This document shows, piece after piece, positions 17,124 to 17,936 of a DNA stretch of 24,000 nt. The stretch's first letter is position 1. Each line of letters starts with the position of its first letter. The position numbers and the translations under genes were made by a program. The notes below the pieces were generated by a model. That model saw only the letters and a program-made list of their open reading frames with translations, was not told where the DNA came from and did no database searches. Origin of the DNA: Gammaproteobacteria bacterium (lineage in GTDB: Bacteria > Pseudomonadota > Gammaproteobacteria > Pseudomonadales > Alcanivoracaceae); contig JAGPVL010000005.1 of the NCBI GenBank assembly GCA_018067045.1, positions 10,501 to 34,500 on the forward strand. Reading direction: 5' to 3'.

Positions 17124-17936
17124 TTAGTGACCGGTTACAGTGATAGTCTGGTTGCTTAGGTCAAGACCAGTGACATAAACGTTACCGATAGACGCGGAAG
17201 CCGCTGTGCCCATCTTCACGCCCATAGCCGCTATATCCATACCTACCAAAGCGCCATTCGTGTTGATAACGAGACCGCCAGTAGTCACATCAATAGTGAT
17301 GCCGTTTAGGTCAACGTTGTTTACCGCCAGCTCATTCACGATCAGCGAACCGCCGCCATTAGCAGACAGGTCGTTCAAGGTGAAGTTGTCGTTCGCATCG
17401 AGGATGTTACCGATTTGAATATCAACTGGCGCAGAAGTAGCAAGCGACACAAGATTGGTCGCTTCATTACCGACCTGCAGGGTCAGTGAAACGCCTGTCA
17501 GGGTAACGCCTACGCTATCGATGATCGGAGCAACTGCAGCAGCCTCTGTTACGAGGTTTGCAATACCAGCTGTTGCGCTTGTGCCGTCAGTACCCAGACC
17601 AACGCCGATATCACCGGTTTGGATAGTCAGCGTAGGAATGGTAACACCGATTTGAATAACGCCGCCGCCTGTTGCCGTGCTTGCAGAGTCAATCTCAATC
17701 GCAGCAGTACCAACCATAGACATGCCGTCGATTATGATCATACCTGAGTTAAGATTGCCGGTGAAACCGTCAGTATCTTCAATACCCAGTGTCAGGGTTG
17801 AGTTGATGTCGATCGACAAGCTAATACCGTCCTGACCAGTTACGTCAGAAAGAGCTGAATCTTCTAGTGCTTCCATCGCGAAGCCGCTTACTGGTAGGGC
17901 CGCGATTGCAGTTACTAATGCGAGTTTCTTAAACAT
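17124..17936 (-). CDS. Secreted acidic Gly/Thr/Ile/Val-rich repeat-like protein, DUF6160/FilA-like (putative fibre subunit)
   Basis: The ORF-track start at 18053 is a TTG, and its first 39 codons are Cys/Asn-rich junk. The ATG at 17936 has GAGGAGA 8 nt upstream and gives MFKKLALVTAIAALPVSGFA|MEALEDSALSDVTGQDG.. (Sec signal, small residues at -3 and -1). The mature ~250 aa has no Cys, Trp or Arg. It has one Lys, one Tyr and a terminal His, with many Asp/Glu. Short alternating hydrophobic strands are punctuated by Gly-rich turns. Confidence 0.85.
   Translation of the reverse strand: MFKKLALVTAIAALPVSGFAMEALEDSALSDVTGQDGISLSIDINSTLTLGIEDTDGFTGNLNSGMIIIDGMSMVGTAAIEIDSASTATGGGVIQIGVTIPTLTIQTGDIGVGLGTDGTSATAGIANLVTEAAAVAPIIDSVGVTLTGVSLTLQVGNEATNLVSLATSAPVDIQIGNILDANDNFTLNDLSANGGGSLIVNELAVNNVDLNGITIDVTTGGLVINTNGALVGMDIAAMGVKMGTAASASIGNVYVTGLDLSNQTITVTGH

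Follow-up and report, generated by a model that had tools for sequence, protein, structure and literature searches.

Surface filaments of the Fil type have been described in Acinetobacter. Cells of Acinetobacter Tol 5 growing on triacylglycerol are covered by long curved nanofibers, which were deduced to be 'Fil fimbriae' (PMC3498257; also PMC11784438) and which are sparse on other substrates (PMC3498257), and the FilA protein of this strain, identified by Edman degradation, ran as a monomer in SDS-PAGE (polyacrylamide gel electrophoresis with sodium dodecyl sulfate; PMC3498257). Purification from Acinetobacter genomosp. 16 yielded, together with type IV pili, 'curved, thin FilA pili' whose identity was established by mass spectrometry, and the 2024 account calls FilA 'a pilus of unknown functions' (PMC10980823, PMC11539960). 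The amount of FilF increases in pellicles of A. baumannii, where the label 'type III pilus' was given by analogy only (PMC3203104). Here we analyze a stretch of 24,000 nucleotides of contig JAGPVL010000005.1 (hereafter the window), which comes from an uncultured marine gammaproteobacterium related to Alcanivorax, and we assign a genuine open reading frame (ORF) of 270 codons plus stop on its minus strand (17936..17124) to filA, the gene of the filament subunit.

Two other described systems bear on this locus. In the Fap system of Pseudomonas, FapD is a periplasmic peptidase whose active-site cysteine is required for secretion through FapF, and its target was left unresolved, with FapE or FapF suggested (PMC5557850). 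The second is 'pilus-like-alpha' (9XFV), a natural filament from karst-cave water that was solved by cryo-electron microscopy (helical rise 11.70 Å, twist 283.86 degrees) and that contains alpha-helices; its only use was to control for handedness in a methods paper, the accessible part of which names the filament only as a bacterial pilus and makes no mention of Fil (PMC12956863).

A Divergent FilA

We propose that the ORF encodes FilA, the building block of the Fil surface filament, an assignment to an already named and poorly understood family that is supported by profile searches. Over its full length the protein matches the NCBIfam model 'putative pilus system protein FilA' (pilus_FilA, NF050077) at E=6.2e-36, and against Pfam DUF6160 (PF19657) it scores 46.6 bits, where the cut-off is 27; the families of the Fil system comprise NCBIfam NF050077-NF050081 and NF033645 together with DUF6160. 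No match of FilA to a Fap or curli subunit family was found among the NCBIfam and Pfam profiles. A preliminary description of this stretch had called the protein a putative fiber subunit, and that view is supported by its membership in FilA/DUF6160, by the conserved fil locus, by the FilA filaments of Acinetobacter (PMC10980823, PMC11539960, PMC3498257) and by the structure 9XFV. The ORF itself is a divergent but ordinary orthologue of a known filament family, in a marine relative of Alcanivorax.

The FilA family is large, as 1160 clusters at 50% identity match its profile among 1.84 billion representative proteins, 232 of them at E<=1e-30. Close homologues are from Alcanivorax and Alcanivoracaceae, and a genome scan detected the family in Alcanivoracaceae, Moraxellaceae (Acinetobacter, Alkanindiges, Aquirhabdus and Fluviicoccus), Pseudomonas and some Oceanospirillales, with further members in soil and freshwater metagenomes. 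A protein identical to the 270-residue form that starts at ATG is encoded on 20 public contigs, and an identical FilA is annotated in a metagenome-assembled genome labeled 'Gammaproteobacteria bacterium'. Across loci FilA is 27-58% identical, compared with 45-76% for FilB, FilC and FilD, and this faster divergence fits a surface-exposed subunit. A C-terminal G-H is conserved in 135 of 201 relatives.

The composition of this protein is exactly as it had been described. Cys, Trp and Arg are absent from the 250 residues past the signal peptide, Lys and Tyr occur once each and Phe twice, and the single His is at the C-terminus; Gly (14%), Thr (12.4%), Ile (10.8%), Ala (10%), Leu (9.6%) and Val (9.2%) prevail, Gln and Asn amount to 2.4 and 7.6%, respectively, and 26 acidic residues stand against one basic residue. 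Since the neighboring proteins contain 1.1% Cys, 1.2% Trp and 5.3% Arg, the chance of finding none of the three in 250 residues is ~e^-20, and the bias is far beyond chance. It is also a trait of the family as a whole, with medians among 201 relatives of zero Cys, zero Trp, three Arg, two Lys and ~25 acidic residues. Each of the hydrophobic stretches and Gly-rich turns that had been listed is present in the translation, and hydrophobicity alternates in the way expected of beta strands, its autocorrelation at lag 1 being negative (z=-3.7). The proposed quasi-periodicity of ~25-35 residues is weak: the autocorrelation of hydrophobicity has small peaks, one at lag 25 with z about 2.9-3.6 and another at lag 50 with z=3.6, and when segments of the family alignment were compared with each other, profile against profile with hhalign, no significant internal repeat of FilA was found (best probability 8%).

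The subunit gene varies in further ways among fil loci. In two close relatives (L008 and L022), FilB is 88-91% identical to that of the window and FilA only 41-42%, and the genes that flank the window's locus are common to L008, the one of the two for which this was checked; the contrast suggests that the subunit gene has been replaced or is under strong diversifying selection. The window holds a single filA copy. In many fil loci there are two to four filA paralogues in tandem, all of which have the same kind of N-terminus, a signal peptide and a TGQDG leader (for example L029, 7942-11691; also L025, L039, L042-L045, L056 and L089), which suggests major and minor subunits. Three loci (L086, L092 and L107) have DUF6160-type genes with no filB, filC or filD within the ~8-9 kb of downstream flank sequenced, and these orphan copies are possibly serviced in trans.

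The fil Locus and Its Relation to Known Systems

The gene filA is the first of the fil locus, with filB, filC and filD downstream on the same strand (Table 1). Of the 74 related loci with at least 5 kb of downstream flank, 71 have the order filB-filC-filD after a filA-like gene, and they come from Alcanivoracaceae, Moraxellaceae and Pseudomonas as well as from freshwater or soil metagenomes. FilB is the sole protease encoded in the locus. In its alignment with LahT150 (6mpz), a double-glycine protease, two motifs that we take to hold the catalytic Cys and His of C39 peptidases, CG..A.L and HFVVLK, are unchanged. FilC matches the crystal structure of FapF (5o67) at E=6.2e-16.

The locus shares with Pseudomonas Fap a periplasmic C39 peptidase (FapD and FilB), an outer-membrane channel (FapF and FilC) and a Sec-dependent, Cys-free substrate (PMC5557850). 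It differs in that the substrates are unrelated, FilA being devoid of imperfect Q/N-rich repeats, and in that Fil adds the FadL-like barrel FilD. Counterparts of FapA, FapB and FapE were not seen in the window, although no search was aimed at them. With the Fil system of Acinetobacter the window has in common the gene order filA-filB-filC-filD and, in FilA, the signal peptide, a leader of the form ..L.D..LS.xTGQDG, a Cys-free, acidic and beta-rich body and the C-terminal G-H. In contrast, the window's FilA is only ~27% identical to its Acinetobacter counterpart, the proteins in the positions of filE and filF look unrelated, filA is followed by an inserted sulfotransferase gene, and the host is a marine bacterium resembling Alcanivoracaceae.

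Chaperone-usher and type IV pili are likewise thin surface filaments built from one major subunit, but the protein had been described as resembling neither class, and we agree on both counts. FilA lacks the Cys pair and the donor-strand motif of the Ig-like chaperone-usher pilins, and no pilin, chaperone or usher family is matched in the locus. Type IV pilins have a class III signal peptide (G|F/M-T-L-I-E) and a hydrophobic N-terminal helix, where FilA starts with a Sec signal peptide of the classical kind and continues with an acidic segment, and no PilB/PilC-type genes lie nearby.

The Leader and a Putative Processing Site

The layout of the signal peptide is conserved across the FilA family, in which the consensus is a signal peptide, A-x-A, and then M-E-A-[ML]-D-D-x-A-L-S-x-V-T-G-Q. 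The window's FilA reads ..LSDVTGQDG at residues 29-37, and in the motif T-G-Q-D-G at about residues 33-37 the G, the Q and the second G are invariant among 189 aligned relatives, T being present in 186 and D in 179. Among the proteins of the window this motif occurs in FilA only.

Double-glycine leaders, the substrates of C39 peptidases, have hydrophobic residues at positions -4, -7, -12 and -15 and a Gly followed by Gly, Ala or Ser at -2/-1. Counting from a cut after the Q, the FilA leader fits this class in the spacing of all four hydrophobic residues (-4, -7, -12 and -15) and in the Gly at -2, which is invariant, but position -1 is an invariant Gln. A further likeness to the leader peptides cut by the C39 domains of PCAT/AMS transporters (such as LahT150, 6mpz) is that the peptidase is homologous. 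On the other hand, FilB would be a free-standing periplasmic protein rather than a cytoplasmic transporter domain, the FilA leader follows a Sec signal peptide, and its P1 residue is Gln.

The relative 9XFV bears directly on the site. A 210-residue precursor of the 9XFV type aligns end to end with the deposited chain of 173 residues, the first residue of which is the Asp right after ..SGQ and the last the C-terminal His. Hence the assembled protomer, as modeled, is devoid of the signal peptide and of the 15-residue segment that follows it, and a protomer that starts after T/S-G-Q suggests that the 15-residue propeptide is cut between GQ and DG (GQ/DG). Taken together, the sequences suggest a propeptide that resembles a double-glycine leader and is removed at GQ/DG. 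FilB probably cuts FilA at this site in the periplasm, because it is the sole protease of the locus and because the motif is unique to FilA in the window.

Predicted Structure and the Filament 9XFV

AlphaFold2 modeled the full FilA precursor with a predicted local distance difference test (pLDDT) score of 81.9, the leader being of low confidence, and mature FilA, with 63 sequences, with a pLDDT of 90.6 and a predicted template modeling score of 0.74, all five models having a pLDDT of at least 88. Structure prediction of the monomer, which had been named as a check, thus gave a confident model. The models consist of long antiparallel hairpins, with strands of 14-21 residues and one helix. In the mature protein the long strands are predicted at residues 3-19, 30-50, 58-79 and 108-121 and the helix at 86-99, and the strands near the C-terminus are shorter. 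For both FilA models the top match in Foldseek was 9xfv_A (E=0.064 and 5.6e-3). Beyond it only non-significant matches were returned, to long-hairpin proteins (MACPF, lysenin and gasdermin) and tubular lipid-binding folds. We also considered and rejected an outer-membrane beta-barrel, as the Foldseek matches to CarO, FadL and Ail were all at E>0.9 and FilA lacks an aromatic C-terminal signal.

By sequence alone FilA has no match in the PDB, and its family profile matches 9xfv_A weakly (E=0.053), in two collinear pieces. The connection is made by a bridging database protein that is 81% identical to a 9XFV fragment and carries DUF6160, and comparison by hhalign of the FilA alignment with this protein and nine 9XFV-type proteins gave a probability of 97-98%. 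In addition, six metagenomic loci in which the flank is long enough have homologues of the window's FilB, FilC and FilD (E about 1e-60, 1e-57 and 1e-110, respectively) encoded downstream of the 9XFV-type gene, and a seventh, shorter contig extends only to filB. This gene arrangement and the profile bridge lead us to conclude that 9XFV is the product of a Fil-type locus and, as judged from its sequence relatives, a divergent member of the FilA/DUF6160 family. The two proteins share the DUF6160 leader of the precursor, the position upstream of filB-filC-filD and a C-terminal His, which in 9XFV ends the sequence ..A-H. They differ in length, mature FilA having 235 residues compared with 173, and in their middle regions, which in 9XFV is Ala-rich and helical and in FilA has extra beta strands. 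Two further unassigned environmental filaments from that study, 9XNC and 9XNH (pilus-like-beta and -gamma; PMC12956863), gave no match to the FilA profile.

Proposed Assembly and Alternatives

We consider it fairly probable that the ORF encodes FilA as the polymerizing subunit of a Fil surface filament in this organism and that assembly follows four steps. The precursor would first pass the inner membrane by the Sec pathway and, to judge from its sequence, its 20-residue signal peptide would be cut after G-F-A. This would leave the acidic propeptide MEALEDSALSDVTGQ, which would then be removed between the invariant Q and D with FilB as the presumed cutter, a protomer start at DG being seen in the relative 9XFV. 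By homology to Fap, the Cys-free, highly acidic and beta-prone chain would next cross the outer membrane through the FapF-like FilC, with the FadL-like FilD and two divergent downstream proteins as putative accessory or anchoring parts. Outside the cell, an elongated all-beta unit with one helix would finally polymerize into a thin helical filament that is not a cross-beta amyloid; filament formation has been shown for Acinetobacter FilA and for 9XFV, and by extension would be expected of the window's FilA.

Several observations weigh against this proposal. The score of FilA against NF050077, 124 bits, lies below the curated cut-off of 220, the model being tuned to Acinetobacter, and the proteins in the filE and filF positions have no BLASTP similarity to FilE and FilF of Acinetobacter, which is why we name these downstream genes as positional equivalents only. 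For this organism the Fil filament is predicted from its genes. The Gln at P1 differs from the Gly, Ala or Ser that is canonical for C39 substrates, and the link between FilB and FilA is one that we infer, the target of FapD in the Fap system being likewise unknown (PMC5557850). As for 9XFV, its chain is what the depositors built into the density, and the propeptide may be present there in disordered form. The FilA model superposes poorly on 9xfv_A (global template modeling (TM) score 0.18-0.24), and homology between the two is secure only for the leader, ~50 residues of the mature protein and a short C-terminal motif.

Two alternatives concern what FilA is. In the preliminary description it was seen as the unit of a beta-solenoid or of a cross-beta functional amyloid, which would be secreted like FapC or CsgA and polymerized by strand stacking. 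The export genes are homologous to the amyloid machinery FapD and FapF, and a beta-rich, Cys-free chain with almost no Lys or Arg, with Gly-rich turns and with weak autocorrelation at lags 25 and 50 would suit such a unit, yet FilA has no significant internal repeats and is not Q/N-rich. Long antiparallel strands and a helix in a confident AlphaFold model, with no beta-helix among the top 50 Foldseek matches in the PDB, speak against the solenoid, which would have regular coils of 18-30 residues built from short parallel strands. A cross-beta stack is opposed by the indirect evidence of the relative 9XFV, which contains alpha-helices and rises by 11.70 Å per subunit rather than ~4.8 Å (PMC12956863), and of the monomeric state of Tol 5 FilA in SDS-PAGE (PMC3498257), so that we regard an amyloid or solenoid FilA as very improbable. 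It is also rather unlikely, in our view, that FilA mainly handles hydrophobic substrates, either as a lipid- or hydrocarbon-binding protein, extracellular or associated with the outer membrane, or as a filament acting with FilD, a function that would be compatible with filament formation. FilD belongs to the FadL/TodX family, the FilA family is concentrated in the oil- and lipid-degrading Alcanivorax, Alkanindiges and Acinetobacter, Tol 5 fibers are abundant on triacylglycerol and sparse on other substrates (PMC3498257), and Foldseek matches FilA weakly to tubular folds that bind lipids, namely the Vps13 N-terminus, SMP domains, Der f 7 and Takeout. However, the matches to lipid-binding folds are all non-significant (E>=0.07, TM<=0.25), and the family is also found in Pseudomonas and in soil and freshwater metagenomes.

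A further alternative leaves the filament in place and concerns the propeptide, which could target or chaperone FilA to FilC or FilD and be lost or become disordered later, while FilB processes another component. That FapE or FapF was suggested as the target of FapD (PMC5557850), that Gln takes the place of Gly, Ala or Ser at P1, and that AlphaFold places a short helix of low confidence at residues 26-33 are all in keeping with such a role. What argues for cleavage by FilB instead is that the invariant T-G-Q-D-G flanks the exact start of the 9XFV protomer, that the hydrophobic spacing is that of double-glycine leaders, and that the sole protease of the locus is found together with a motif that the window has in FilA only. 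We assign the targeting role some weight but hold it to be unlikely.

Implications for the Fil Family

It is already known that the FilA family has a name and that its filaments have been seen. In the literature searched we did not find it stated that Fap-like Fil machinery is tied to FilA processing, that the GQ/DG site is invariant, or that 9XFV is a Fil product. We put forward tentatively, as a possibility that may well prove wrong, that Fil is a distinct class of Gram-negative fiber with a GQ/DG propeptide cut by FilB, FapF-type export and a non-amyloid helical filament, of which 9XFV, as far as the accessible part of its description goes, would be the first atomic structure, and that the Alcanivorax locus has recruited a sulfotransferase.

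The Fap-like machinery, the invariant processing site and the assignment of 9XFV concern the family rather than this window in particular. FilA-type filaments are abundant on Acinetobacter and widespread in oil-degrading and opportunistic gammaproteobacteria, and these three findings offer testable hypotheses of assembly, a structural template in 9XFV and, in FilB, a possible protease target for blocking the filament. They should be of moderate interest to specialists.

Gene Signals and Neighboring Genes

The start codon of filA is the ATG at 17936 and the stop is at 17126-17124; an alternative reading of the ORF initiated at TTG, listed mechanically, has 309 residues. A scan located the hairpin of the terminator that follows the gene at 17083-17097. 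The placement of a terminator directly after filA would permit expression of the subunit above that of the assembly genes. The sole Rfam match is a sub-threshold Leu_leader over this hairpin, which we take as chance. Upstream, ~430 bp of non-coding DNA (17937-18365) separates filA from a divergent gene resembling aminodeoxychorismate synthase (18366-19547) and may be a regulatory region; a simple scan found no convincing sigma-70 promoter upstream of filA.

TABLE 1. Features of filA and the fil locus, with positions in the 24,000-nucleotide window.
Feature	Position	Strand	Basis
filA coding sequence, Fil filament subunit precursor	17124..17936	-	ORF; NCBIfam and Pfam matches
Ribosome-binding site GAGGAG	17945..17950	-	Read from sequence; 9 nt 5' of ATG
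Sec signal peptide, residues 1-20, MFKKLALVTAIAALPVSGFA	17877..17936	-	Basic n-region, hydrophobic core, G-F-A motif; predicted cleavage
Putative 15-residue acidic propeptide, residues 21-35, MEALEDSALSDVTGQ, ending T-G-Q	17832..17876	-	Family alignment; putative removal by FilB
Predicted mature FilA, 235 aa, DGISLS...ITVTGH	17127..17831	-	AlphaFold2; best PDB fold match 9xfv_A
Intrinsic terminator directly 3' of filA	17074..17105	-	A-run, GCCCGGC-TTT-GCCGGG hairpin, then T9
Helical-repeat and sulfotransferase protein, 535 aa, no signal peptide, between filA and filB	15383..16990	-	Pfam Sulfotransfer_3 E=1.7e-41
filB, C39 cysteine peptidase, presumed periplasmic, FapD-related	14294..15103	-	NCBIfam FilB 2.4e-91, FapD 3.3e-36; Pfam Peptidase_C39
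filC, outer-membrane channel, FapF-related	13205..14257	-	NCBIfam FilC 2.7e-105, FapF 3.7e-19; PDB 5o67
filD, outer-membrane barrel, FadL/OmpP1 family	11492..13171	-	NCBIfam FilD 3.1e-228; Pfam Toluene_X 8.9e-66
Gene in filE position, 365 aa, very divergent	10306..11403	-	Weak: pilus_FilE E=0.0026, FilE_C E=0.0048
Gene in filF position, 690 aa, lipoprotein signal (..LIISGC)	7958..10030	-	Lipobox from translation; no family match

The 535-residue protein encoded between filA and filB is predicted to be cytoplasmic, with an N-terminal helical-repeat region followed by the Sulfotransfer_3 domain. Of 71 fil loci, 16 have a homologue of this protein at the same place, those noted being all from Alcanivorax or Alcanivoracaceae; close relatives, L008 and L022 among them, lack it, as does every Moraxellaceae and Pseudomonas locus. 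The gene has its own terminator-like hairpin at 15330-15311.

The gene in the filF position varies in sequence between strains, as a comparison of the window with a closely related contig (L001) shows. The two are 96% identical in DNA at 9201-24000 and again at 7059-7504, with a break inside this gene (7958-9200), such that FilA through FilE are 95-100% identical and the filF-position protein is only 25-74% identical beyond residue ~100. The pattern resembles an allelic cassette of the kind found in adhesins or in proteins that serve as phage receptors.

Downstream of the fil locus, the minus strand of the window at 111-7567 encodes a GntR/FCD regulator (6866-7567), the methylisocitrate lyase PrpB (5817-6710), the 2-methylcitrate synthase PrpC (4409-5539) and two more large ORFs (1490-4201 and 111-1295). 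The arrangement pabB - fil - GntR - prp is kept in Alcanivorax and Isoalcanivorax.

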